Assembly: GCA_018814875.1 (NCBI GenBank)
Contig: JAHIYH010000045.1
Location: forward strand, 13,316 to 77,315
Source: Patescibacteria group bacterium
GTDB taxonomy: Bacteria; Patescibacteriota; Gracilibacteria; Peribacterales; Peribacteraceae
DNA: 64,000 nucleotides
Direction of reading: 5' to 3'
The translations under genes were made by a program, and so were the position numbers. Every line of letters begins with the position of its first letter. Positions within the stretch are counted from its first letter, which is position 1. Below the pieces are notes generated by a model. The model was not told the origin of the DNA. It was given only the letters and a program-made list of their open reading frames with translations, and did no database searches. Shown in pieces: positions 5,361-36,214 of the stretch.

Positions 5361-6356
5361 TTACATAGTGACGTACAGCTTCTTGCCGTCTTCGCCGGGA
5401 GTGTAGTACCTTGTTGGCTGGTTCGTTTCGTCGCAGTAAACCTTTACCCCGAGTCCTTTTTGATGCCATGCCGTAAAGATGGCGGCAAGTGCCAAGAAGT
5501 TGGGATTGGGTTTATTGACCCTCGTAAGGAGATTGTCCAGATCGTCGCCGAGTCCCTCGGGTATCGTTGTTTGATGCGATACCTTTTGCTTTAGGGTTTC
5601 AGCGAGATCGGCAATCTCTGTCTGATCTCTGCTGATCAACACTTTGCTGATGGCATCGAATTGTTCGCAGAGGACCGCCGTTTCTTCAACGGCAGCCGCC
5701 GGCTCGGCCGTATAGTCGTCCGGGCATACCATCGAAAGTACACGCACTGCTTCGAAGAACTCGACTCGTGCAGTTTTGCGCGCATTGGTCGCCGCTTCCA
5801 AGTCGGAGGTTATCTTTCCAAGATCGCCCCGATGACTCTCAATCCAAGGCTTCACTTCATCTAGCTTGCTGAAGTTGTACTTTTTCCTGACGGAAGCCTC
5901 GTATTCATCCAAGGCTTTTTGAGCGGCGGCTTGAGCTGAGCGTAGTTGCTCCACCTTTCCTAAGGCTTCTTGAGCAGTAGCTTGAGCTGAGCGTAGTTGC
6001 TCTAATTGAGCCTTCAGTTCTACGGCAGGGTCCGCGGCCGGAGCTTTGGGCTGTTCAGCAGCCGGAATTGGCTTTTGGTTGAACAGTTTGTCCGCTTGCT
6101 TTTTCCACGTCGCCGTAGTCTGGTTGAGATTATCAACCAACTTACTGTGTCTCGCTAGAGCTGACGATATCTCCTTGTACCGCTCTTGCGCCTCTTCCGC
6201 CTTTTTGTAGTCAGCTTTTGCCGACTCCAATTCCTCAAGCGCGGCCAACACTTCTTCTTGCACAGCAACCACTACTAGCTCTGGTACCTGTGCTGCTTGG
6301 ACTGCAGTGGCCAACATGGCGGCCAACAACGCGACGCTGCTAACGAAAGTCCTCAT
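5361..6356 (-). CDS. secreted coiled-coil protein, ORFan, compositionally atypical (GC-rich)
   Basis: N-terminal signal-like MRTFVSSVALLAAMLATAVQA; Ala/Glu/Gln-rich heptad-like repeats incl. duplicated QLRSAQA(T/A)AQ(E/K)AL; GC visibly above genome background. Confidence 0.7.
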   Translation of the reverse strand: MRTFVSSVALLAAMLATAVQAAQVPELVVVAVQEEVLAALEELESAKADYKKAEEAQERYKEISSALARHSKLVDNLNQTTATWKKQADKLFNQKPIPAAEQPKAPAADPAVELKAQLEQLRSAQATAQEALGKVEQLRSAQAAAQKALDEYEASVRKKYNFSKLDEVKPWIESHRGDLGKITSDLEAATNARKTARVEFFEAVRVLSMVCPDDYTAEPAAAVEETAVLCEQFDAISKVLISRDQTEIADLAETLKQKVSHQTTIPEGLGDDLDNLLTRVNKPNPNFLALAAIFTAWHQKGLGVKVYCDETNQPTRYYTPGEDGKKLYVTM

Positions 6357-6576
6357 CGATCTTCCTCCAAAAGGGGTGTAACGAAAGGGTGTAACGAAAA
6401 AAGTTTGTACTGTCTGCCCACACTGAATATCAATAGACCACTATAGCTACAAGCTGGGATCTACTGAAGGCAGCGTGGGTTTCTCCTCCAATTAAAGAGG
6501 AGACCCATGATGTGAATGGACAAAGGATGCGAAATATAGTATATAACAGCCTGTTTGTCAATACAGCTGCAAAAAA

Positions 6577-6747
6577 CCGGTCACTGACTCTGTAGCCGAC
6601 TGGTTCTATAAAGGGCTAAAGCCCAAAATACAAGTCGTTAACCCCGCGCTTACCTGTCGGCCATAGCCCATAGGCGAAGGCTGAAGCGCGGGGTTAACGC
6701 TAAAAAACTTGGGCTTTAGCCCATTTTCATGCAAACCCAGTGATCGG
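6577..6747. mobile_element. MITE-like palindromic element, copy 1
   Basis: terminal inverted repeats ccggtcactg / cagtgatcgg; long internal stem gggctaaagccc...gttaaccccgcgctt / aagcgcggggttaac...gggctttagccc; second inverted copy at 56671..56813. Confidence 0.6.
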
Positions 6748-6964
6748 TTTCATCTGCAATAAAGAGATGCAAAAAGAGATCAGGAGAAATTCAGTGTAGA
6801 CCTTACGACCTTACGACCCCTTACCTTTCTTGATATCTACTGAATTATCCTCTGATTCTCAAAAAGTATATGATTATTCCTTCGAATTCCTTTTGACTCT
6901 GCGCAATTCTCCGTATAGGATTTCTGAGTTGTTTTGGCTTGTAATGGTCGGAACAGAAATTTAT

Positions 6965-7006
6965 ATGCCCCTTCGTCCCGCTGCGGGACTCAGGGCAAGC
7001 CTCTAA
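6965..7006 (+). promoter_or_regulatory. 13-codon uORF (MPLRPAAGLRASL) created by a GC-rich CCTTCG element just upstream of rpsL
   Basis: atgcc start duplicated (tttatATGCC at 6962-6969 vs tttATGCC at 7019-7026); element ccttcgtcccgctgcgggactcagggcaagcc 6970..7001 lies between. Confidence 0.4.
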
Positions 7007-7021
7007 TCGTCAGTAATATTT

Positions 7022-7441
7022 ATGCCAACTGTTAACCAATTAATCCGTCGGCCACGCAAGAAAAAGCGCCAGAAGAGCAAAGCTCCTGCGCTACAGTACA
7101 CGTGGAATGCGCTCAAGATGCGTCAGGTACCTCTAAGAAAGGGTACTCCATTTAAGCGTGGGGTGTGTATAAAGGTAACAACCATGACCCCAAAGAAGCC
7201 AAACTCCGCTCTGCGAAAGATTGCTCGTGTGCGTCTTACCAATGGGCATGAAGTAAAGGCCTACATCATGGGAGAAGGACACAACCTCCAAGAGCACAGC
7301 GTTGTAATGGTTCGTGGAGGACGCGTAAAAGACCTTCCAGGTGTACGTTACCACATCGTTCGTGGAGTCCTAGATACCGAAGGTGTCCAGAATCGCAAAC
7401 AAGGAAGAAGTCGATACGGTGCTAAGAAGCCTAAATCTTAA
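7022..7441 (+). CDS. rpsL: 30S ribosomal protein S12
   Basis: MPTVNQLIR...[10 protein letters not shown] motif, length 139 aa, str-operon context. Confidence 0.98.
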
Positions 7442-7443
7442 CT

Positions 7444-7538
7444 ATTGCTCAATTGCTCCATTTTTCCATTGCTCGCAGGCGATTCTCAAAGCTGATTCAT
7501 CTGATTCCAACAATGGAACAATGAAACAATGGAACCAT
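7444..7538. repeat. hairpin with tandem-repeat arms (CAATGGAA-type 8-nt units)
   Basis: left arm attgctcaattgctccatttttccattgctc is complementary to right arm caacaatggaacaatgaaacaatggaacca; rpsL-rpsG spacer. Confidence 0.65.
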
Positions 7539-7562
7539 CAATTCTTACGATAATTTTCTCTC

Positions 7563-8015
7563 ATGGCCAAGCCTATCAAACAATACATCCCAAAAGATTC
7601 CGATCCTCTGATCGAGAAGTTCATTTGCTGCATGATGATGGGAGGCAAGAAGAGTATTGCGCGTAAGGTGTTTCAGGATTCTCTGGGAGTGATAAAAACG
7701 CGTACGAATGATGATCCAAAAGATATCTTCAATAAAGCTATCTTAAATGTCACTCCGCTTGTGGAAGTGCGTCCAAAGCGTGTAGGAGGTTCGGTGTATC
7801 AGGTTCCTACAGAAGTACCGCCAAAGCGACAGCAGGCACTCTCCATTCGCTGGATTATAAAAGCGGCCCGCGAACGTAAAGGTATGCCCATGTCGCAGAA
7901 GTTAGCTATGGAATTCCTAGATGCATCTGCAGACCAAGGAGCTGCAGTAAAAAAGAAACAGGATGTGTTGAGGATGGCACAGGCGAATAAGGCGTTTGCG
8001 CATCTTGCCAAGTAA
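7563..8015 (+). CDS. rpsG: 30S ribosomal protein S7
   Basis: S7 family sequence (VEVRPKRVGGSVYQVP), 150 aa, follows rpsL. Confidence 0.97.
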   Translation: MAKPIKQYIPKDSDPLIEKFICCMMMGGKKSIARKVFQDSLGVIKTRTNDDPKDIFNKAILNVTPLVEVRPKRVGGSVYQVPTEVPPKRQQALSIRWIIKAARERKGMPMSQKLAMEFLDASADQGAAVKKKQDVLRMAQANKAFAHLAK

Positions 8016-8040
8016 GGAAGGTAAAGAAGGTCAGGAAGGT
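8016..8040. repeat. left arm (GGTMARGAA)n flanking four-helix-bundle gene
   Basis: ggaaggtaaagaaggtcaggaaggt, reverse complement of the array at 8476..8535. Confidence 0.7.
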
Positions 8041-8429
8041 ATTGTTGTTACTGGAGTTTTTGAGCTGCACGACTTTATTAGTTTGAAAAGTAGAAATGAA
8101 ACACAGTTAAGTTGATCTAAGAGTTGTTTGTATATTTCTTCATTCAAATATCCTAAATCGCTCGCGAGTTCCAAAAAATTATCAACTTCTGCTGCAGATG
8201 CATATGCTCTTTCGTAATAGATCTTTCTGTGTGGGGCAGTGCTCATGCGTGATCCTTCAACAATTTGTGCCCCAATAGAACTTGCTGCACGTCGCAATTG
8301 GCTTGTGATACCGAATTTCTCTTCTTTAGGAAATGTAAGAGTTGCACGATAAATCATTAATGTGAATTTGTGTGATTCCTGCCATACGATCAGTTTTCTA
8401 AAGCCGTTCTTAAATTTCATATTTGACAT
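8031..8429 (-). CDS. four-helix-bundle protein (23S rRNA intervening-sequence protein family)
   Basis: LIVWQESHKF...QLRRAASSIGAQIVEG motif typical of this family; antisense to the rpsG-fusA transcription direction. Confidence 0.85.
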   Translation of the reverse strand: MSNMKFKNGFRKLIVWQESHKFTLMIYRATLTFPKEEKFGITSQLRRAASSIGAQIVEGSRMSTAPHRKIYYERAYASAAEVDNFLELASDLGYLNEEIYKQLLDQLNCVSFLLFKLIKSCSSKTPVTTIPS

Positions 8430-8475
8430 GTGTACAAACGTACACCCTATTCAGTTGTTGTGCAATAGAAAAATA

Positions 8476-8535
8476 CCTACTTTACCTTCCTTACCTTCTT
8501 TACCTTCTTTACCTTCTTTACTTTCCTTACCTTCT
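8476..8535. repeat. right arm (CCTTCTTTA/CCTTCCTTA)n flanking four-helix-bundle gene
   Basis: cctactttaccttccttaccttctttaccttctttaccttctttactttccttaccttc; 9-nt period. Confidence 0.7.
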
Positions 8536-8623: not shown

Positions 8624-10720
8624 ATGGATCTAAAAAACGTACGAAATATTGGAATCATCGCTCATATCGATGCCGGAAAGACAACTACTACCGAGCGTGT
8701 TCTTTTTTATACAGGTATCAACTACAAAATTGGAGAGGTTCACGAAGGTGAAGCAACAATGGACTGGATGGAGCAGGAGCGTGAGCGTGGAATTACTATC
8801 ACGTCTGCAGCTACGCAGTGTCACTGGAAAGCAAAGAATGTAGAAGGGGAAGAAACAGAATGCATAATCAATATTATCGATACCCCAGGCCACGTAGACT
8901 TTACCGCAGAGGTAGAAAGGTCTCTTAGGGTTCTAGATGGAGGAATCGTCTTATTCGATGGTTCACAGGGCGTGGAGCCGCAGAGTGAAACCGTGTGGCG
9001 TCAGGCAGATAAGTACGATGTTCCACGTATGGCTTTTATCAACAAGATGGATAAAACAGGCGGGGATTTCTTTATGTCTATGGCCAGTATTCATGATCGC
9101 CTTAGTAAGGATGCTGTGGCAGTTCAGCTACCTATTGGTTCAGAGTCTGACTATAAAGGTGTGATAGATATCGTTGGCATGAAGGCTTACACATTTAGTG
9201 GAAAGATGGGAGAGCAGGTGGATGAAGTAGAGATTCCAAGTGATATGGCGGATCAAGTAACTGAATACAGATCACAACTTATGGAGAAGGTCGCTGAATG
9301 TGATGATGATTTGCTTGATGCCTACCTAGAGAATGGAGCACTTACAGATGAGCAACTCATTAAAGGTATTCGCATTGGTACGATATCTAGCAAGATATAT
9401 CCAGTATTCTGTGGTTCATCTCTTAAGAACGTTGGTGTACAGCCACTTCTAGATGCCGTTGTAGCGTATTTGCCTTCACCATTGGATATTCCTCCGGCTA
9501 AGGGGATCAATCCTGATACGGATGCAGAAGAAGAGCGAAAGCCTGATAATTCAGAGCATCTTTCTGCTCTTGCCTTTAAAATTGCAACCGATCCGTTTGT
9601 AGGCAAACTTACTTTCATCCGTGTTTATTCGGGAGTACTTAAGACAGGAGGATCTATTATGAATACTCGAACTTCAAGGAAGGAGCGCATTGGTAGGCTA
9701 GTAAAGATGCATGCCAATTCACGCAGCGAAGTTGATCAAGTGGAAGCAGGAGACATTGCAGCTGTTATTGGTCTGAAGGATTGTAGAACAGGCGATACGC
9801 TTTGTGATGGTGATCATCCAATTAGGCTCGAGTCCATCACATTTGCAGAGCCGGTTATTTCTGTTGCGGTTGAACCAAAGACCAAGCCAGATCAAGAGAA
9901 GATGGGTATAGCTTTGCAGAAACTTGCTGAAGAAGATCCAACATTCCGTGTGGAGTCGAATGAAGAGACGGGACAAGTAATTATCTCAGGAATGGGAGAG
10001 CTTCACTTAGACATTCTTGTTGATCGTATGAAGCGCGAATTCAAAGTGGAAACAAATGTTGGTAAGCCTCAAGTCGCTTATCGTGAGACTATTCAGAAAG
10101 AAGTGGATCATGATGAGAAGTACATTAAGCAGACTGGTGGTAAAGGACAATATGGACACGTTATCTTCAAGCTCATTCCTCAGGAGCCAGGTAAGGGATA
10201 TGAGTTCGTTAATCACGTTGTTGGAGGTAGGATTCCTAAGGAATACATCAAACCTTGTGATAAGGGATTCCAGGAAGGTATGAGTCGTGGAGTTTTGGCT
10301 GGCTATCCTTTGGTGGATATCATGGTCGATCTTTACGATGGTTCGTATCATGATGTGGACTCATCCGAAATGGCGTTTAAAACATGTTCCAGTATGGGTC
10401 TTCAGAATGCTGCTCGTAAGGCAGATCCAACTATTCTAGAACCTATTATGAAGATTGAGGTGGTTACACCAGAGGAATTCCTTGGAGATGTGATGGGTGA
10501 CCTAAACTCACGTCGTGGAATGATTCAGGATACAGGTGAGAGAGGTAATGCTAAAACGATTCTGGCAAATGTGCCTCTTGCTACGATGTTTGGATATGTA
10601 ACAGACCTTCGTTCTATGTCTCAGGGAAGAGCAAGTTCCACAATGGAATTTGGACACTACGACAAGGTTCCAAGGAATGTTGCCGATGAGATTGTTGCTA
10701 AGAGGGTGGGAAGAAAATAG
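8624..10720 (+). CDS. fusA: translation elongation factor G
   Basis: [10 protein letters not shown]1 motif, DTPGHVDF, full five-domain length (698 aa), str-operon position. Confidence 0.98.
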
Positions 10721-23620: not shown

Positions 23621-23968
23621 ATGGAAGAACTTGATATCCCCATTCTTCGCAAATGTTATGATCTTTATAAGACCTTTCACGGACTGCGCGGTCTTGTATC
23701 CAAAGCAGACCGTTATACTCTTTGGCAAAGGTCGGAAAATCTGATCTTGGATGTTATCGAAGGTATTCTGTTTGCAAGTCAGCTTCCTAAGGCTAAAAAG
23801 CTGCCACACTTGGAACAAGTGAGTATGAAACTCAATATGCTTCGTATTTTTCTGCGTCTCACAAAAGAAACAAAGATACTCGATCTTAAGAAGTGTCTCC
23901 TCTTACAAGAGATAGTCGACGAAATTGGTAGAATGCTTGGAGGATGGATGAAATCAGTGAAGGACTAA
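23621..23968 (+). CDS. avd: Avd-like accessory variability determinant (small basic four-helix-bundle protein)
   Basis: 115 aa, helical and Lys/Arg-rich, distant relative of the IVS-protein family; TR starts 47 nt after its stop codon. Confidence 0.7.
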   Translation: MEELDIPILRKCYDLYKTFHGLRGLVSKADRYTLWQRSENLILDVIEGILFASQLPKAKKLPHLEQVSMKLNMLRIFLRLTKETKILDLKKCLLLQEIVDEIGRMLGGWMKSVKD

Positions 23969-23996
23969 AAAACTCCCTCTGTCAGATTGGAGGGAG
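23966..23996 (-). terminator. rho-independent terminator of the TR-sense (minus strand) transcript
   Basis: minus strand reads ctccct-N12-agggag followed by TTTTTT; no T-run on the plus strand. Confidence 0.6.
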
Positions 23997-24014
23997 TAGT
24001 AGAGATGGGGAGAA

Positions 24015-24131
24015 GGACTGCCGAGCGGCCGACAACCACAAGTTGTCATTGCGATTGTCATCCAAGTTTCAGTTGACGTTCACGCGACCCTCGTTGATAT
24101 CGAGTTCGACGTAGTTGTCATCAGGGAGCGC
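24015..24131 (-). other. DGR template repeat (TR), 117 nt
   Basis: aligns gap-free to VR1 and VR2; the minus-sense TR has 29 A; in-frame reading gives ALPDDNYVELDINEGRVNVN*NLDDNRNDNLWLSAARQS (AAC-rich, contains a stop, so non-coding). Confidence 0.9.
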
Positions 24132-24291
24132 TATTTGCCCATTCCCTTCTAGGAGCACTGGAAGTCGAGGTTTACTGTCTTACGACCTATATCCTCTTCT
24201 CCCTGTATTTCATTTGGGAGCAATCCCGCGCATGCGGGATACCTCCACTAGAAATGAGCAAGAAGTTCTTCTCGATCTCAGCTCACTCGCT

Positions 24292-24538
24292 ATCGTGCTC
24301 CATAGAGACACGTTACTCTGGTGAGTTTCCACAATCGCTATCCGCTTAGTGGTAGCAGAGATGAGGTGCACTGCGAGACGAAATCGTAATCTCGGCTACA
24401 AAAGCATTGCACATATTGAGTATATCAAAAAAAGAACCCCCGCGAAAAAAATGTCGCGGAGGTTCCAGCCTTCGCCTATCGGCTACGGCCGGCAGGCAAG
24501 GTGTCAAAAGGGTCAAGCCCTCAAGACTTCAAGGTTCA
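24292..24538. repeat. conserved 3' flank of target gene 1 (copy a of ~247-bp repeat)
   Basis: about 6 mismatches in 247 nt versus 25437..25683 by hand alignment; contains terminator and GC-rich element 24466..24500. Confidence 0.85.
24427..24465 (-). terminator. rho-independent terminator of target gene 1
   Basis: minus strand gaacctccgcga-N8-tcgcgggggttc followed by TTTTTTT. Confidence 0.7.
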
Positions 24539-25225
24539 GGACTTCCGAGCGGCCGACAGCCACAAGTGGCCATAGCGACCGCCACCCAAGCCGCAGACGA
24601 CGACCACGCGACCCCCGTCGATATCGAGCGCGACGTAGTCGCCATCAGGGAGCGCTTCTTCGCAACGACACCAGTCGTTTCTCAGGAGATCGTCGCCAAC
24701 CTCCGTCAGATGGACAAGTAGGGCTGTCGCGGCGACACAAACAGGTGCCGGTTGCCATTCAGCGTCAATACCGGACAGATGTTCAGTCTGCTCACTCCAT
24801 TTTTTGCGGTTCGAGTTCGGAACAGGTAGTAGTAGACGGTAATAGCCCGACTCTGCTTTCCATTCGTGCTGCTCGTACCAGTCCTGATCTTGCATCATGC
24901 GCTCTTGTCCAGCTTTGCTTTCGCGCAGCTCTTTTAGACTCCAACCACCGTAATAGATGACGACTTCGCCATCTTCGGGCTTCGGAGTTGGGACGTTGCA
25001 CTCTGCAGGCAGACCGAGGATACGGCTTACCGCAGTAGCATCGTAGACGATGCCATGCTGGGGACATCCTGCTTGCATGTGACGGACGAGACGTTGCATT
25101 TGAGACGGATCATCAATGCTCGGCTGAAGATCAGTCGAGAGATCGAGACCCTGCTTAGCAGCGCGTTCTGCCCATGCCAGCAGCTTCTTGGTAACAGCAA
25201 ATTCGTCGACAATAGGGTTAGCCAT
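24536..25225 (-). CDS. DGR variable protein 1 (229 aa from the ATG with RBS)
   Basis: aaggag RBS before ATG 25225 (ORF-track start 25282 unlikely); C-terminal 39 codons are VR1; paralog of 25681..26355; no N-terminal hydrophobic segment. Confidence 0.85.
   Translation of the reverse strand: MANPIVDEFAVTKKLLAWAERAAKQGLDLSTDLQPSIDDPSQMQRLVRHMQAGCPQHGIVYDATAVSRILGLPAECNVPTPKPEDGEVVIYYGGWSLKELRESKAGQERMMQDQDWYEQHEWKAESGYYRLLLPVPNSNRKKWSEQTEHLSGIDAEWQPAPVCVAATALLVHLTEVGDDLLRNDWCRCEEALPDGDYVALDIDGGRVVVVCGLGGGRYGHLWLSAARKS
24539..24655 (-). other. DGR variable region VR1
   Basis: 20 substitutions versus TR, all at TR adenines, plus 1 non-A difference and 1 in the terminal GC-rich IMH-like segment (hand count); encodes ALPDGDYVALDIDGGRVVVVCGLGGGRYGHLWLSAARKS*. 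Confidence 0.9.
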
Positions 25226-25329
25226 TATCGTTCTCCTTTTGTCCTCAAACCGTGAGGAACGGGCTTGCTCGGAATGAGACAAGCATGCTACGCCCTTTCA
25301 AAGGCACAGGACGCTTGTCTCAGTGAGAC

Positions 25330-25437
25330 CTTGACGATGCTCTGAAAGACCATCATTATATAGTTTATAACTAAATTCATATCTGTCAATGTTCGATTTT
25401 GTCCTATACTGCCAAATCTGTTTGTAAATATGGTTAA
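25330..25437. repeat. 108-bp repeat, copy a (5' region of target 1)
   Basis: identical by eye to 26488..26595; carries TTGACG-N17-CATTAT on the plus strand. Confidence 0.85.
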
Positions 25438-25683
25438 TCGTGCTCCATAGAGACACGTTACTCTGGTGAGTTTCCACAATCGCTATCCGCTTAGTGGTAG
25501 CAGAGATGAGGTGCACTGCGAGACGAAATTGTAATCTCGGCTTCAATAGCATTACACATATCAAGTATATCAAAAAAAGAACCCCCGCGAAAAAAATGTC
25601 GCGGAGGTTCCAGCCTTCGCCTATCGGCTACGGCCGGCAGGCAAGGTGTCAAAAGGGTCAAGCCCTCAAGACTTCAAGGTTCA
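25437..25683. repeat. conserved 3' flank of target gene 2 (copy b)
   Basis: see 24292..24538. Confidence 0.85.
25572..25610 (-). terminator. rho-independent terminator of target gene 2
   Basis: same hairpin plus T-run as 24427..24465. Confidence 0.7.
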
Positions 25684-26355
25684 GGACTTCCGAGCGGCCG
25701 ACAACCACAAGTTGCCACGGCGATTGCCATCCAAGAAGCAGTAGACGTACACGCGACCCTCGTGGATATCGAGTACGACGTAGAGGCCATCAGGGAGCGC
25801 CTCTTCGCAACGACACCAGTCGTTTTTGAGAAGATCGTTTCTGGTCTCCTTCAAATGAACGAGCAGGGTGGAAGCGCAGAGTGCAACTGGAGCAACTTCT
25901 TCACCAGGCAGAAGGAGATCCTTCTGTTCGGTTAAGTTTTTCCTGTTGCTGTCCGGCACTGGCAAACGGACACGGTAGATGCCCGCCGTCAGCTTCGCAC
26001 TTGCGCAGTCGTACTTGTCGTACCAATCCTGCTGGTGCATCAGCTCCTTGCCGACCTCACAGTCACGCAGATCTTGCAAAGACCAGTCTCCGACGCGGAT
26101 AATGATCTCGTCAGGTGCGGGTTCTGGGAGCGGTTCCGTACTCGCTTCTCCGAAGCCGAGGATTGCAATGGCATCGTAGGTGAAGGACGGAAGTCGCACC
26201 GGCCACACGTCTGCAAGACGTTGCATAGAAGCAGCGTCAGCGTCGAGCATGGCAAGCCATCGCTCTGGCGTGATACCCGCCTCTTGGAGTCGCTTTAGGC
26301 CTGTCGTAATCTTCTTCTGTGGCAGACCAGTCAAGCTTGTTGCGGCGGTCTTCAT
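25681..26355 (-). CDS. DGR variable protein 2 (224 aa)
   Basis: aaggag RBS; C-terminal VR2; roughly half of residues shared with protein 1 over the C-terminal ~150 aa (GDWSL..L, QDWY, LPVP.SNRK, NDWCRCEEALPDG). Confidence 0.85.
   Translation of the reverse strand: MKTAATSLTGLPQKKITTGLKRLQEAGITPERWLAMLDADAASMQRLADVWPVRLPSFTYDAIAILGFGEASTEPLPEPAPDEIIIRVGDWSLQDLRDCEVGKELMHQQDWYDKYDCASAKLTAGIYRVRLPVPDSNRKNLTEQKDLLLPGEEVAPVALCASTLLVHLKETRNDLLKNDWCRCEEALPDGLYVVLDIHEGRVYVYCFLDGNRRGNLWLSAARKS
25684..25800 (-). other. DGR variable region VR2
   Basis: 14 substitutions versus TR, all at TR adenines, plus the shared IMH-like difference; encodes ALPDGLYVVLDIHEGRVYVYCFLDGNRRGNLWLSAARKS*. Confidence 0.9.
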
Positions 26356-26487
26356 GAGATTCTCCTTTACCCCTTAGGGGCATACAAGTATTACCGATTG
26401 TACCGTCGGCTCGGACTTACTCGGAAACGAGACAAGCACCCTATGCACTGCAAAAAATACACAGAGCGCTTGTCTCTTTACATGAAT

Positions 26488-26595
26488 CTTGACGATGCTC
26501 TGAAAGACCATCATTATATAGTTTATAACTAAATTCATATCTGTCAATGTTCGATTTTGTCCTATACTGCCAAATCTGTTTGTAAATATGGTTAA
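26488..26595. repeat. 108-bp repeat, copy b (divergent region between target 2 and RT)
   Basis: identical by eye to 25330..25437. Confidence 0.85.
26489..26517 (+). promoter_or_regulatory. candidate promoter for the RT gene
   Basis: TTGACG - 17 nt - CATTAT, about 85 nt upstream of RT ATG; the same motif is duplicated at 25331..25359. Confidence 0.4.
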
Positions 26596-26603
26596 ATGAA
26601 CAA

Positions 26604-27653
26604 ATGAAAGTATATAGAAACATCTTTGAACGGATCATTTCGATGGAGAACATTTTTACTGCGTGGGAGGAGTTTCGTAAAGGAAAGCAAGCACGAATGG
26701 ATGTGCAGCAGTTTGAGCGCCACCTTGAACAAAATCTTTTTCAATTACACAGGGAACTTTCGGGCGGCACCTATAAACATCAACCCTATAGTGCCTTTAC
26801 AATCTGTGATCCAAAACAACGTCATATTCACAAAGCATCTGTTCGTGATCGTATCGTTCACCATGCCGTATTCTCTGTTCTCAATCCGATTTTCGAGCCG
26901 ACGTTTATTGCTCATTCTTTCTCGTGTAGAAAGGACAAAGGTACACACAAAGCAGTAGATGCGCTGGAACGAATGTTGCGTAAGGAAAGCAGAAATAATA
27001 GCCGTACCTGTTTTGCCCTTCAGTGTGATATCAGCAAATTTTTCGATTCTGTGTCGCACCCAATTCTAAAATCCCAGATCACAAAGCGCATCCGTGATAG
27101 AGATGTCCTCTTACTGATGGATGAAATAATCGGTAGCTTCACTGCTCCGCAATTCGATACCGTTTCGCAGTCTGGCATTCCCATTGGGAATCTCACGTCA
27201 CAGCTCTTTGCCAACGTGTACCTCAATGCCTTGGATCAATTTATGAAGCATGAATTGAAGGTATGTCACTATGCACGCTACACTGACGATTTTGTGATCG
27301 TATCTACAGATCGTGTGTATCTACAATCTCTCATTAAGACTATTGGATCATTCCTCCAACAGGAACTTTCTCTTGATCTGCATCCACGCAAGGTCACAAT
27401 CCGAAAGTTCACACAGGGTATAGATTTTCTTGGATATGTACTTCTTCCTCATCATCGGGTTCTGCGCACACGCACAAAACATCGCATGTTTCGCAAGCTT
27501 CATAAGAGGGCATCGATACATAAAACAGGATCGGAAACCGCTGAAAGTGTTGAGCAATCTCTGTATTCGTATCTTGGTGTTCTCTCTCATGCCAACACCT
27601 ACAGGCTTCGCTCCAAACTTCTCAATCATTATTGGTTCTGGATGACGGAGTAG
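26604..27653 (+). CDS. DGR-type reverse transcriptase
   Basis: RT motifs 1-7 with IGNLTSQ (the I/LGxxxSQ DGR signature in place of the group II QGxxxSP) and YTDDF (YxDD); 349 aa, no maturase or endonuclease domain. Confidence 0.9.
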   Translation: MKVYRNIFERIISMENIFTAWEEFRKGKQARMDVQQFERHLEQNLFQLHRELSGGTYKHQPYSAFTICDPKQRHIHKASVRDRIVHHAVFSVLNPIFEPTFIAHSFSCRKDKGTHKAVDALERMLRKESRNNSRTCFALQCDISKFFDSVSHPILKSQITKRIRDRDVLLLMDEIIGSFTAPQFDTVSQSGIPIGNLTSQLFANVYLNALDQFMKHELKVCHYARYTDDFVIVSTDRVYLQSLIKTIGSFLQQELSLDLHPRKVTIRKFTQGIDFLGYVLLPHHRVLRTRTKHRMFRKLHKRASIHKTGSETAESVEQSLYSYLGVLSHANTYRLRSKLLNHYWFWMTE

Positions 27654-28641: not shown

Positions 28642-29019
28642 TTACTTATTAAGTATGCCAGATCGAAATTTATTGAGTAGATAACTAACTTTTCCAACTT
28701 GATTGTTGAGTTCCTCGTATTGTTCTGCGGTGATGTAATCTAATCTTGAGCTAAGCGAGAGTTGGTAGTCCAATTCTTCCAATGAACCTTCGGCATGCTC
28801 AAGATAGTGAAGTCGCTCCTTATTTGAGCGTTTCGTATTGCCTTCAACAATGTTGGTCGGGACACTTGTGGCAGATCGTCTTATCTGCGCACAGAGAGCA
28901 TATCGTTCTTCAGGAGGAAATTTAGGAAGTAATTTATAAACTTCGAGACAGAGTGCATCTGCCTCTTTCCAAACAATCAAATTCTGATAAGGGCGTTTTC
29001 TCATAGAAAAGTTATTCAC
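28642..29019 (-). CDS. four-helix-bundle protein (23S rRNA IVS protein family)
   Basis: LIVWKEADALCLEVY...QIRRSATSVPTNIVEG motif; GTG start. Confidence 0.85.
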   Translation of the reverse strand: MNNFSMRKRPYQNLIVWKEADALCLEVYKLLPKFPPEERYALCAQIRRSATSVPTNIVEGNTKRSNKERLHYLEHAEGSLEELDYQLSLSSRLDYITAEQYEELNNQVGKVSYLLNKFRSGILNK

Positions 29020-30482: not shown

Positions 30483-31739
30483 ATGCGCAAACGTCTAGTA
30501 TCATTTTTGGCTTACCACGCGTCGCTCGCGAGCGCCGTGGCTTATATAGCGCTTCTGAGCGTCACAGTGGCAGCGAATGCCGCTTCGTTTGCGGATGTCT
30601 CTGGAACGCCATACGAGACAGCATTTGTATATCTTTCTCAAAAAGGGATCATTAATGGGTACATAACAGGAGAAGGAAGACCCAACGGACCTCTTAATAG
30701 AGCGGAAGCTTTAAAAGTTATTATGGGACTTAGATATAAAGATCGTGTTGAGTGGTTCGAGCAAAACATGGTTCCAATGCCGCTTTTTGTAGATATCGAT
30801 CAGAATGCATGGTATGCGCCATACATCGAAGCGGCTTTTGAAGCGAATCTTATAACTGGTTATTCCGATCGTACCTTTCGTCCATCACATTATCTGACGG
30901 TGGAAGAGGCTGTGACGATGGCGTTACGTGCGTATGGAGTGTTAGGTTCCGACAATGGGGCAGAGCTTTCCCCATATATTCAGAATCGTGATAGTGAATG
31001 GTTTACACCATATATAAATGCGGCAATCACAAAGAACCTGATTATGCATCAGGGCAGATTGGAACTTGGTCAGGTGATGACGCGCGGGCGCTTCTTCGAT
31101 TTAGTTTACCGTTTGGATAAAGTGCAGAAAGATGGGTCACTGGCATATCGTGGTCTAGAGCCGCAATCTCCTGTGTCAGCGCAACAGAGAGTACAGATTG
31201 TGCAGGCCGTGCAGTCACGAACGACTAGTCAGATATCACAAGGAACGATCAATGTGCCACAGACAGTTGCAGTTGCACAGAATTCCCATGCATCCGAGAA
31301 ATATTTCTCCCTTTCTATGCCAACACTTGGGGTAGATGATTTGACCGTGACGCATCCCTCCGATCCTTTTACTTCTGATGGAGTACTTAATCCGTTGCAG
31401 CAAGGTGTTGGGCACCTATTTAGTTATCCTGGTGCAGGAGGAAAGATTATGATTTACGGGCACTCTTCCGGCTATCCATGGGATGTTTCGCAGTACACGA
31501 AGATCTTCCGTAAGGTGAATCAGCTAACTGTTGGTGATCGTATATATGTAACTTATGAAAATAAGCTATTCGCGTACGAGGTAAATTATAAGCAGACGAT
31601 TGCTGCAAGTGATACTAGTCCGTTCAATGATTCAGGTAGTGGAGAAGAGCTCATTCTCTATACTTGCTGGCCACCGGATTCAATCAGTCAACGTTATCTG
31701 GTGCATTCGGTGCCGGTGAGTGCGGTAGCATTGAGATAG
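30483..31739 (+). CDS. SLH-domain protein fused to a sortase-like transpeptidase domain
   Basis: signal/TM, SLH-like repeats (FADVSGTPYE...GIINGY, WYAPYIEAA...ITGYSDRTFRP), C-terminal IYGHSS...LILYTCWP...QRYLV matches the sortase His/Cys/Arg triad pattern. Confidence 0.6.
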   Translation: MRKRLVSFLAYHASLASAVAYIALLSVTVAANAASFADVSGTPYETAFVYLSQKGIINGYITGEGRPNGPLNRAEALKVIMGLRYKDRVEWFEQNMVPMPLFVDIDQNAWYAPYIEAAFEANLITGYSDRTFRPSHYLTVEEAVTMALRAYGVLGSDNGAELSPYIQNRDSEWFTPYINAAITKNLIMHQGRLELGQVMTRGRFFDLVYRLDKVQKDGSLAYRGLEPQSPVSAQQRVQIVQAVQSRTTSQISQGTINVPQTVAVAQNSHASEKYFSLSMPTLGVDDLTVTHPSDPFTSDGVLNPLQQGVGHLFSYPGAGGKIMIYGHSSGYPWDVSQYTKIFRKVNQLTVGDRIYVTYENKLFAYEVNYKQTIAASDTSPFNDSGSGEELILYTCWPPDSISQRYLVHSVPVSAVALR

Positions 31740-33733: not shown

Positions 33734-36214
33734 TTACCCAATCCTTCTCAATATTTCCCTATCCACGAACTCCTTCTGTCTTCCATACGTCAAACGGCTT
33801 AATTGTTTAAATGCTTCTGCTGCCTGTGGGTCTTTTGGATATGTTGTATCCAGCCATGGGCGTGGTACTTCTATCGAGAATGGGCGTGAAGGCTTGCCAT
33901 CAATACTCAGTTTCATCGCTCCCTTGAATGCATCCATATTCACCAGATCTTGTTCCGAGAAGACTGGTGCCATTTCTTTAGCTCCAACTTCAGCATCTTG
34001 CGGTCCAATTTTGTAGAACATCATCGTACCGACGTTTCCAAATATTGCTCCTTTGAGGCTGGTCTTACCGGAGAGTCTGTCATCTTTTTCTAGCTGATCT
34101 ATGTATTGATGAGCTAGAACCAAGCCAAGGCGATACTTTCTGGCTTCAGAAAGAATCGATTCAATCGAATCGGTTACAAAGTTTTGGAATTCATCAATGT
34201 ATAGGAAGAAGTCACGTCGCTCCTCACTTGATTGCTGTTGCCTTCGCATTGCAGCAACTTGGATTTTATTTACAAAGATCATACCAAGAAGTTGTGAGTT
34301 GATATCTCCTATCAGTCCCTTGGATAGATTCACCAGTAGAATCTTCCCATTATTCATGACTTCCGAAATATCAAAAGAGCTCTTGGTTTGTCCTACTATA
34401 TTGCGGATGAGTGTGTTGGTGTAGAACTGTCCGAATTTAGCCGCAAAATAGGGGATCATCTCTTGTTTCTCGCGTTGACCGGTTTGTGCCATTTGCTTCT
34501 CCCAGAAGGATCTTACGATAGGGTTCTTTACTTTGGATACTTTGTATTTCTGCCAATCATCATCTGTGAATAGTTTGACGAGGTCGGTAATTGCTCCACC
34601 TTCTTCTTCATCTTCCATCAAAGTAAGACATCCATTTCGGAAGTAATCCTGAAGACGAGGTCCAAAGACTTCGTTTCCAAACATCTTCACCATCATGTTC
34701 ATGGCATCAAGTGCGATCAGGTCTCTCTCTTCTGCTGTTTTCCCTTCCAGTAAGTTAAGACCCATAGGACGCTGAGTATCTGCTGGATTAAAGTAGATCA
34801 CATCATCGGCACGTTCACGTGGGATGTATGGGAGCAGATCTTCGACCAATGATCCGTGCGGGTCCACTATGCACAACCCCTTTCCATCATGAAAATCCTG
34901 CCGTGCCATTAGTTGCATGATCGAAGACTTACCAGTACCAGTTTGTCCGATTATGTATAAATGACGGAAACGATCTTCGTTTTTCATGAAAACATCACGT
35001 TTTTCTCCGCGGTGTGTATTGGTTCCAAGTCTTAATCCTTCTTCCGGAAGATCCTTTGGAGCAGGGGCAATTTTAAAGTTCTGCCATTTAATTGTTTCTA
35101 CTTTGTTATATTTGATATTGGGCAAATGGAAGAAGCTGGTGAGCTCAGTTGTACCAAGGAGCATCTTGGGTGACAGGAGTGTTTGCTTTAGTGTGCGATG
35201 TGGAGAACGTCTAATAAAATTCGTAATGGTTTTCTTCAGTTGGACTATTCGTGGCTTCTTAAAGCCATTGCCACGGACGGCTGTGAATTGTCCAAAGGAT
35301 GCTGCTAGTGAGTTTAGAAGTGTCTGAGTACGCGCTTGATTATCTGCAGAGGTAACTAGTCGTATCACACAATTGAATCCTGGTTGTCCGGCCTTCTCGT
35401 CTATTGCTTTGCTATATTCCTCTACCATTTGCGAAACACGTTCACCTGTTGCTTGCGCTTCGCCTTGTATATTAATCAGCTCATTGCCATGTGTGATTAT
35501 GCTGAAAGCTGCTGATAACCATCCGATAGGATTCCACCATTTTATACTTTTCTTTTTTGGATTAATGATTTGTGCGGCTGCTTTTTGCAGATGTTTCTGC
35601 CATCCCGATTTTACAGGTTGAAGAACTAATTGCACCGCTGCACCCTCGCCTACTTCCAGTTTGGAAAATGCATTCGTAATGTTATTAAATGGATCACTCT
35701 TGAGTTGTTGATACGTACGGAATACTGACGTGAATGGTTTGGCGGGAGAGAGTGGTTGTACTGCGACTACTGATTTTTCTGTGAAGATGTTGTAGTCTTC
35801 CACTTCGTCGATGATCGTATCAGGGTAGAAGGATGTAATTTGTTTTTCTATTAAAGAAGCGTACTTTCGTGGGCAGACTACGAAGAAAAGAATCTCTCCT
35901 GCAAGTGCTGCGTATTCCAAAGAAAAGAACGGCTGCCCGCGCCAGAGTCGTTCGATGCGGGATTCATAGATTCCGTGCAATGCTTCAAAAAGATGTTCCA
36001 TTACACCAAGAACTTCACGGAAGTCCTGACCTGTGGAGAAGCGCTCCGATTCAACCTCTTTGTCTTCTTTGCTTTCCTTCTTTGGTATTAAAAGTTGCAG
36101 AAAAACTAAGTCTCTCTCATATCTACGTTCAGCCGCACGGCGGCAGAGCCAGAGTAGGCCCATAGTGCCTCCAGCTAGAGAAATAAGTGCAATGATAATG
36201 AAAAGGATGTTCAT
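33734..36214 (-). CDS. membrane-anchored VirD4/TraD-TraG-like (FtsK/HerA superfamily) P-loop ATPase, paralog 1
   Basis: N-terminal TM; Walker A IIGQTGTGKSS; CIVDPHGSL; Walker B FLYIDEFQNF; paralog of 58432..61044. Confidence 0.65.
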   Translation of the reverse strand: MNILFIIIALISLAGGTMGLLWLCRRAAERRYERDLVFLQLLIPKKESKEDKEVESERFSTGQDFREVLGVMEHLFEALHGIYESRIERLWRGQPFFSLEYAALAGEILFFVVCPRKYASLIEKQITSFYPDTIIDEVEDYNIFTEKSVVAVQPLSPAKPFTSVFRTYQQLKSDPFNNITNAFSKLEVGEGAAVQLVLQPVKSGWQKHLQKAAAQIINPKKKSIKWWNPIGWLSAAFSIITHGNELINIQGEAQATGERVSQMVEEYSKAIDEKAGQPGFNCVIRLVTSADNQARTQTLLNSLAASFGQFTAVRGNGFKKPRIVQLKKTITNFIRRSPHRTLKQTLLSPKMLLGTTELTSFFHLPNIKYNKVETIKWQNFKIAPAPKDLPEEGLRLGTNTHRGEKRDVFMKNEDRFRHLYIIGQTGTGKSSIMQLMARQDFHDGKGLCIVDPHGSLVEDLLPYIPRERADDVIYFNPADTQRPMGLNLLEGKTAEERDLIALDAMNMMVKMFGNEVFGPRLQDYFRNGCLTLMEDEEEGGAITDLVKLFTDDDWQKYKVSKVKNPIVRSFWEKQMAQTGQREKQEMIPYFAAKFGQFYTNTLIRNIVGQTKSSFDISEVMNNGKILLVNLSKGLIGDINSQLLGMIFVNKIQVAAMRRQQQSSEERRDFFLYIDEFQNFVTDSIESILSEARKYRLGLVLAHQYIDQLEKDDRLSGKTSLKGAIFGNVGTMMFYKIGPQDAEVGAKEMAPVFSEQDLVNMDAFKGAMKLSIDGKPSRPFSIEVPRPWLDTTYPKDPQAAEAFKQLSRLTYGRQKEFVDREILRRIG

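Follow-up and report, generated by a model that had tools for sequence, protein, structure and literature searches.

Which proteins does a retroelement of the Peribacteraceae diversify, what fold do they have, and where in the cell would they act? These questions are raised by a stretch of 64,000 nt (hereafter the window) from a Patescibacteria group bacterium (assembly GCA_018814875.1, contig JAHIYH010000045.1, positions 13,316 to 77,315). Positions 23621-27653 of the window hold a complete diversity-generating retroelement (DGR), composed of an accessory gene of the bAvd type (avd, plus strand), a template repeat (TR, minus strand), two tandem target genes (minus strand) and a reverse transcriptase (RT) gene (plus strand). 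In the interpretation presented here, the two targets are probably the variable proteins of a DGR, chromosomal and recently active, of the Peribacteria/Peregrinibacteria, part of the CPR (Candidate Phyla Radiation), and possess a compact C-type-lectin-fold (CLec) domain that is not of the subtype named after FGE (formylglycine-generating enzyme).

All of the parts by which a DGR is recognized were found: an RT with the appropriate motifs, a TR paired with variable repeats (VRs), an initiation of mutagenic homology sequence (IMH) with its counterpart (IMH*) in the TR, a weakly supported downstream inverted repeat, Avd, and diversification itself. The RT contains the DGR-type motif 4 IGNLTSQ at residue 194 (pattern [ILV]GxxxSQ) and YTDD at residue 226. 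Avd matches PF22296 bAvd with an E value of 1.7e-15 and 57.9 bits (cut-off 40), and scores 70.9 bits against the NCBIfam model NF033474 DivGenRetAVD, which is below the cut-off of 80 for that model. In the NCBI annotation, target 1 is the hypothetical protein KKF55_05765, and target 2 is the hypothetical protein KKF55_05770, represented by residues 44-224 only.

Adenine-specific diversification of the target genes

The TR, VR1 (target 1) and VR2 (target 2) align across 118 nt in the sense of the minus strand. There are 22 differences between the TR and VR1, and 15 between the TR and VR2. It is apparent that these differences are concentrated at TR adenines, which hold 34 of the 36 TR/VR mismatches (chance P ~7e-19); one further mismatch is the difference between IMH and IMH*. 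The IMH is an A-poor block of 27 nt, which is the same in both VRs and one base off in the TR. Nineteen TR codons are recodable, eight of them AAC or AAT, and the 28 mutagenic adenines correspond to ~7e15 protein variants per gene.

Locus L005 carries the same cassette as the window, with proteins that are 87% identical. Its TR differs from that of the window at 10 non-mutagenic positions, and at all 10 both L005 VRs agree with the L005 TR and both window VRs with the window TR. As the VRs match their own TR at these lineage-specific sites, they have been rewritten since the lineages diverged; the comparison shows that the DGR is recently active. Variation within a population was observed in the Candidatus Peribacter cluster P0024, whose gene adjoins RT and Avd. 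The 13 full-length variants in this cluster have 23 variable positions, 21 of which lie within the 29-residue VR window and just 2 in the remaining 168+ residues. Across the family of related proteins described below, the entropy over residues 56-224 is 2.69 bits at TR-adenine codons versus 1.53 elsewhere, and its maxima coincide with the TR-adenine positions. Judged from these sequences, the population hypervariability of the family falls at the VR.

The mechanism proposed for this cassette is as follows. Transcription of the minus strand would yield TR RNA. The products of the two plus-strand genes, RT and Avd, would copy this RNA into adenine-mutagenised cDNA. Guided by the IMH and the downstream hairpin, the cDNA would replace the last 118 nt of each target, thereby recoding up to 19 codons per target.

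The TR also contains an in-frame TGA, at the codon for residue 206 of target 2 and residue 211 of target 1. The same codon is TGC in both VRs and AAC in L005. An unmutated copy of the TGA adenine would truncate the target before its last predicted strand (β5), and only mutated copies (TGC, TGT or TGG) would give full-length proteins. Either an inherent ON/OFF lottery or a lesion recently acquired by the TR could account for the in-frame TGA.

Predicted fold of the target proteins

Template-free AlphaFold2 models were obtained for full-length target 2 from 44 sequences (predicted local distance difference test, pLDDT, 91.3; predicted template-modelling score, pTM, 0.82) and for the core of target 1 from 60 sequences (pLDDT 94.6, pTM 0.92). 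Both models show the same order of elements, namely a short strand and helix, β1, a broken α1, one more strand with a helix, and α2, which is long, and both end in four consecutive antiparallel strands (β2-β3-β4-β5) at the C-terminus. Each protein would be composed of a C-type-lectin-fold domain of ~170 aa, preceded by a three-helix domain at the N-terminus that is optional.

When the models were compared with the PDB using Foldseek, all of the hits with a probability above 0.5 were C-type-lectin folds, for both models. The best match in each case was the tip domain (C-terminal domain, CTD) of Bd2740 (8oks; probability 0.98-1.00, template-modelling (TM) score on the Foldseek target 0.63-0.65), superposed with a root-mean-square deviation of 3.8-4.0 Å over 106-109 alignment columns for a Foldseek target length of 109-111 residues. 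Other matches were rhodocetin, ZK002, convulxin, flavocetin, the C-type lectin-like domain of DEC205 and the CTD of Legionella Lcl; FGE and EgtB appear lower in the list, and weakly. The E values, 7e-3 to 5e-2, mean that these are fold-level matches only. It had been suggested in the initial annotation that the targets may represent an undescribed scaffold, to be checked by running Foldseek on AlphaFold models. That suggestion was not borne out, in that both models retrieve C-type-lectin folds as their only meaningful hits; because the matches are at the level of the fold, they amount only in moderate degree to the high-confidence structural match that had been named as refuting it. No immunoglobulin (Ig) hits were obtained for either model, and the models are α/β with long helices, which argues that the proteins are not Ig-like DGR targets.

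The CLec core consists of paired N- and C-terminal strands, two helices and a β2-β3-β4 sheet, and in Mtd, TvpA and TaqVP the invariant residues encoded by the IMH are situated on β5 (PMC6328139). The element order in both models and the C-terminal placement of the VR and IMH fit this core. Taken together, the models make the C-type-lectin fold the best-supported one for the targets, and a highly probable one; the weak E values, the low TM scores normalised to the query and the absence of any solved DGR protein from the top hits are the reasons for regarding it as best-supported and not as proven. We read the modelled domain as a compact non-FGE C-type-lectin variant.

The variable residues, numbered as in the target 2 model, are located on β3 (191, 194, 196 and 198), in the following turn (199), on β4 (203, 205, 206 and 207) and in the loop ahead of β5 (209-211 and 213-215). 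Fixed V/L/I/V/W/R residues occur between the variable positions, and the invariant end is LWLSAARKS. In terms of the models, the VR would encode the β3-β4 hairpin, the next loop and the terminal β5, with LWLSAARKS as the invariant last strand. The alternation of variable with fixed hydrophobic residues, to which the initial annotation had drawn attention, is indeed present and is placed on β strands by the model. Because of this alternation, one face of the sheet and the loop should form the diversified ligand-binding surface. The pattern would be compatible with a CLec binding surface of predicted exposure, and a single exposed binding face with a role in ligand binding is suggested by the modelled arrangement.

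Sequence features and location of the target proteins

Both of the small ORFs that had been reported, of 229 and 224 aa, are present on the minus strand, and the paralogous products are 46% identical. The length of 229 aa for target 1 is counted from an ATG; the mechanical ORF opens at a TTG 19 codons upstream. A ribosome-binding site, AAGGAGAA, precedes the ATG of both targets, so no N-terminal extension is hidden upstream. The motifs previously listed as common to the two proteins were recovered (GGWSL/GDWSL..LR, QDWY, YRL.LPVP.SNRK, LLVHL, NDWCRCEEALPDG and LWLSAARKS). The N-terminal ~70 aa had been described as unrelated; this holds for the first ~38 aa, which have no detectable similarity, but not beyond residues ~38-40, from where BLASTP aligns the proteins onward (E 2e-16).

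As had been stated, neither target has an N-terminal hydrophobic signal or transmembrane segment by the Kyte-Doolittle heuristic. The top 19-residue hydropathy window (~1.4 on the Kyte-Doolittle scale) corresponds to the internal, buried α2 helix and not to the N-terminus, and neither a lipobox nor a twin-arginine motif is present in the target sequences. The reported lack of an evident C-type-lectin or FGE signature is in keeping with the profile searches, which were empty: neither target has a Pfam match at E<=1 (including FGE-sulfatase PF03781, DUF1566 PF07603 and Lectin_C), no family was found for them in NCBIfam or PHROGs, and PDB sequences gave no match by phmmer or profile search. The GGSW...GFR-type pattern of FGE-type VRs is likewise not in the target VRs.

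The lack of export signals throughout the family described in the next section argues that the proteins are soluble and not membrane-bound, and the fact that no pair of cysteines is conserved argues for the same. Such a location, probably cytosolic, is given about an even chance here, and display at the surface via a partner or a non-classical route is considered a real but less favoured possibility. The idea of a cytoplasmic location is not new, having been raised already for CPR DGR targets by Roux et al. 2021 (PMC8144416). Those authors reported that in the targets of CPR clade-2 DGRs neither a transmembrane domain nor any other is typically recognisable, considered uncharacterised VR-overlapping domains to be probably new C-Lec variants, and posed as a question whether CPR targets are truly non-membrane-bound (PMC8144416). 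The present locus thus illustrates, in good resolution, a puzzle that was already known; it does not amount to a new type of system.

The protein family

A word-seeded search yielded 71 relatives of the targets, and an exhaustive search with a hidden Markov model yielded 722 cluster representatives at E<=1e-3, or 339 at E<=1e-10. Named members derive nearly all from Peregrinibacteria/Peribacteria, plus one from Ryanbacteria; two Planctomycetota contigs with family members are probably mis-binned. The conserved core is ~170 aa in length. As many members consist of the core alone, the N-terminal helical domain of ~55 aa is optional. No conserved disulfide is apparent, as C183 is the sole near-invariant cysteine. 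Scanning 119 diverse members with Pfam gave nothing at E<=0.01 for known DGR-target domains and nothing consistent, and the only precomputed Pfam domain among the listed homologues is a PF00078, on a longer gene call that contains an RT (P0012).

RT and Avd were found together within 8 kb at 1 of the 20 loci of representative genomes. Several copies without an RT retain the IMH, post-IMH hairpin and terminator DNA (L006/L001 on JACKFU010000001.1, L009, L011 and L016); their protein identity is only 46-79%, and no RT or TR is present within 8 kb of them. An Avd remnant of 36 aa persists in L006, where a TR is missing. Such RT-less family members may be remote or fossil DGR targets. It was also observed, in an ungapped comparison of VRs, that those of paralogues within a genome differ by indels. 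In the Peribacteraceae locus L003, on a 1.38-Mb contig, positions 6001-8526 hold a tandem array of three family members, after which comes an extracytoplasmic function (ECF) sigma factor; the 6 kb around the array contain no RT.

One kind of designed protein was retrieved by the broader family profile and was rejected as a relative. The SAKe6 designed Kelch propellers reached a whole-sequence E value of 4.6e-7, with no single stretch passing. This score is the sum over six identical blades that match the hairpin pattern of the VR (x-V-x-V..GR..W-D), and the match is accordingly judged to be a repeat artefact, or at most a local β-meander resemblance.

Alternative explanations

Several results weigh against the interpretation given above. 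No Foldseek hit in the PDB has an E value below 1e-3, and the TM scores normalised to the query are 0.34-0.44. Mtd, TvpA, TaqVP and AvpA are outside the top 50 PDB hits, a fold search of BFVD gave nothing below E 0.18, and hhalign against BPP-1 Mtd gave a probability of 0.04. Most family members in representative genomes have no RT within 8 kb, from which it follows that not every member need be diversified. As for export, 3 of the 215 family representatives have an N-terminal hydrophobic segment, and the use of a hydropathy heuristic weakens the statement that signal peptides are absent. The weak Foldseek values and the absence of solved DGR variable proteins from the top 50, together with the lack of a sequence or profile link to any CLec family and of the GGSW...GFR-type pattern in the VR, favour the view of the C-terminal module as a truly novel scaffold for DGRs, whose likeness to lectins reflects a shared α/β arrangement with a four-stranded meander. 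That view is nevertheless quite unlikely. The models of paralogues with 46% identity retrieve the same CLec set as their only hits above a probability of 0.5, the best match aligns nearly the whole of the Bd2740 domain, and the element order and the invariant terminal strand agree with the CLec core. Moreover, the solved DGR CLec proteins are likewise undetectable from each other by sequence (PMC6328139).

The remaining alternatives concern where the targets act. They could be cell-surface adhesins for attachment to a host or episymbiont, exported non-classically or docked to a secreted partner via the N-terminal helical domain. CPR bacteria are commonly regarded as episymbionts, which counts in favour of this possibility, as do the 3 members with a hydrophobic N-terminus and the presence within 10 kb of a VirD4/TrwB-like ATPase and an SLH-sortase, for which there is no evidence of linkage. 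Most studied cellular DGR targets are surface proteins (PMC8144416), and Bd2740, the closest structural relative, is a surface fibre tip (PMC10769870). We nonetheless regard surface adhesins as a rather doubtful explanation, since 212 of the 215 representatives lack a hydrophobic segment at the N-terminus, the sequences contain neither a lipobox nor a twin-arginine motif, no secretion gene is conserved beside the family loci, and C183 is the only near-invariant cysteine, leaving no conserved disulfide in evidence. If instead the cassette belonged to a phage or mobile element, the targets would be receptor-binding proteins of the virion, and the missing signal peptides would be explained. Mtd-like receptor-binding proteins also have no signal peptides, and the L005 cassette adjoins a serine recombinase and an MmeI-type restriction-modification gene. 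This origin is very improbable given the housekeeping flanks in the window and the absence of PHROG hits, of structural phage genes at any locus and of a close BFVD match. In addition, the Candidatus Peribacter cassette is at a syntenic chromosomal site between release-factor and IF3/L20 genes, and the family persists at syntenic chromosomal sites across genera. A chromosomal DGR with non-FGE C-type-lectin targets is thus the interpretation retained in the following sections.

Comparison with known systems

Among the solved CLec-fold variable proteins of DGRs, Mtd, TvpA and TaqVP are of the FGE subtype and AvpA is of the non-FGE kind. The targets share with this group a VR at the extreme C-terminus, IMH-encoded invariant residues on the last β strand, TR codons rich in AAC/AAT, and a predicted core of β1, two helices and a β2-β4 sheet; small single-domain members exist in that group too. 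They differ from it in having no sequence or profile similarity to its members, none of which was in the Foldseek top 50, in the absence of apparent FGE-type inserts, in the extra N-terminal three-helix domain, and in a VR that forms a regular β-hairpin with strictly alternating variable positions.

The best structural matches to the targets are the Bd2740 CTD and the snake-venom lectins rhodocetin, ZK002 and convulxin. Bd2740 is described as a compact variant of the C-type lectins that has no Ca site and trimerises in the manner of Mtd (PMC10769870), and is aligned to the targets over nearly its whole domain. In contrast to the targets, these proteins are extracellular and are not DGR targets; sequence identity to them is 5-12%, and the targets are ~60 residues longer, with extra helices between β1 and α2. 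The present proteins resemble the CPR clade 2 targets in the catalogues of Paul et al. 2017 and of Roux et al. 2021 in their CPR host, their small size and the lack of a recognisable transmembrane or other domain; novel CLec variants were predicted by those authors to be concealed among such targets. What is added to those catalogues is an explicit fold assignment and a delimited family (722 representatives).

Genome context and cassette order

In the window, the DGR is flanked by genes of housekeeping function (for histidine biosynthesis, a class II ribonucleotide reductase, YchF and a tRNA synthetase), which indicates a cellular DGR and not a phage DGR. The DGR architecture typical of CPR, designated B3, is TR-(avd)-RT (Wu et al. 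2018, PMC5758913). The window shares with B3, as do L005, L008 and L027, an order in which the target precedes the TR and avd is on the opposite strand. Around this conserved target-TR-(avd) module the position of the RT varies. At three of the loci, namely the window (26604-27653), L005 (4721-5809) and L027, it departs from B3, being divergent from the targets and upstream of them, and only L008 has it downstream of avd (9528-10520), in the classical order. Inversion of a segment was considered as the cause of the opposed orientation of TR and targets relative to RT and avd, and was rejected, no flanking inverted repeats having been found. The opposed orientation is conserved in relatives and is close to the known CPR B3 architecture. 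A tandem RT-target duplication was observed in L027 and L029 and is missing from L028; it represents population structural variation or an assembly effect.

Clustering of the neighbourhoods revealed a single recurrent gene, an ECF-sigma ORF, which 7 of 23 loci have within 8 kb. At the loci examined (L001 and L027-L029), it is situated in a release-factor/IF3/L20 neighbourhood, and shared synteny could explain at least part of its recurrence. Several other genes are found near the DGR in the window. A PF05635 23S_rRNA_IVP protein (E 1.4e-35), encoded at 28642-29019 on the minus strand, 1 kb past the RT, is a second four-helix-bundle protein with weak similarity to bAvd, and is distinct from the DGR Avd. 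A VirD4/TrwB-like coupling ATPase (33734-36214, minus strand) and a sortase with an S-layer homology (SLH) domain (30483-31739, plus strand) lie within 10 kb of the DGR, with no sign of a link to the targets.

Features of the cassette and non-coding flanks of the targets

The features of the cassette are listed in Table 1. Going by its sequence, the hairpin at 23967-23996 probably serves as a terminator 3′ of the TR.

Table 1. Features of the DGR cassette, in window coordinates (MFE, minimum free energy)
Feature	Position	Strand	Basis
avd accessory gene, 115 aa, convergent with TR	23621..23968	+	PF22296 bAvd
Terminator-like hairpin and T6 (CTCCCTC..GAGGGAG TTTTTT), directly 3′ of TR	23967..23996	-	sequence and MFE fold
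TR, 29 adenines, sense = minus strand	24014..24131	-	repeat comparison
IMH* in TR	24015-24041	-	
Intrinsic-terminator-like hairpin of target 1	24433..24466	-	
Imperfect inverted repeat/hairpin (GTCTTGAGGG-CTTGA-CCCTTTTGAC), 8 nt past target 1 stop	24503..24527	-	
Target 1, 229 aa: divergent N-terminal helical region and compact CLec-like domain	24536..25225	-	ORF and model
VR1, 20 A-to-N changes versus TR	24538..24655	-	TR/VR alignment
IMH of VR1	24539-24565	-	
Sigma-70-like promoter of target 1 (TTGACA-16-TAAACT), within 108-nt exact repeat 25330-25437	25362..25389	-	
Intrinsic-terminator-like hairpin of target 2	25578..25611	-	
Post-IMH hairpin 3′ of target 2, same as that of target 1	25648..25672	-	
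Target 2, 224 aa: three-helix N-terminal domain (~1-55) and compact CLec-like domain (~56-224)	25681..26355	-	ORF and model
VR2, 14 A-to-N changes versus TR	25683..25800	-	TR/VR alignment
IMH of VR2	25684-25710	-	
Sigma-70-like promoter of target 2, within exact repeat 26488-26595	26520..26547	-	
RT of the DGR, 349 aa, in divergent orientation to target 2	26604..27653	+	PF00078, E 5e-22

The coding DNA of the two target cassettes is 50-60% identical and the non-coding flanks are 95-100% identical. The 5′ flank includes the 108-nt exact repeat with the promoter (25330-25437 versus 26488-26595) and the 3′ flank extends over 245 nt (24292-24535 versus 25437-25680). Included in the shared flanks are the IMH and the post-IMH hairpin, along with a strong promoter and a terminator. 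Near-identical flanks around diverged genes are indicative of concerted evolution or recombination of the flanks. Support for the post-IMH hairpin is weak: it is retained at RT-less loci, and 4 sequences yielded a single compensatory pair. The conserved ~140 nt past each terminator have no significant RNA structure (z -0.31) and no Rfam match.

Two further elements were observed in the non-coding DNA around the targets. The long 5′ leader of each target (25275-25322 and 26426-26479) contains a similar imperfect inverted repeat (GAGACAAGC...GCTTGTCTC), which may be a regulatory hairpin or an operator. Relative to L005, both window 3′ flanks contain a GC-rich insertion of 32 nt (GCCTGCCGGCCGTAGCCGATAGGCGAAGGCTG; 24467-24498 and 25612-25643), and in L006 a related palindromic insertion, CCTGCCTGCCGGCAGGCAGG, is situated within the terminator loop. 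In sequence, the GCCTGCCGGCCGTAGCCGATAGGCGAAGGCTG and CCTGCCTGCCGGCAGGCAGG insertions look like small mobile palindromes.

Implications

The assignment removes an apparent exception, adding another DGR target without sequence relatives to those on a C-type-lectin scaffold, and strengthens the view of this fold as a near-universal chassis for DGR variation. The family is large, unannotated and restricted to the CPR, and could become a Pfam entry. It is accompanied by a clean two-target cassette and by natural population variants, and the compact domain of ~170 aa could be of interest to engineers of CLec display scaffolds.

The family also offers a concrete test case for the question of whether CPR DGR targets act inside the cell. 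A further, unlikely proposal is that the targets are cytosolic, DGR-diversified minimal lectin-fold binders, present throughout the Peribacteria lineage as intracellular recognition modules. Such binders may bind unpredictable phage or host-derived molecules, possibly while docking to an effector via the N-terminal helices. If this were true, they would be genuinely non-membrane-bound DGR targets, which would answer the question posed by Roux et al. 2021, and the in-frame TGA of the TR would in addition allow the DGR to switch each copy ON or OFF.

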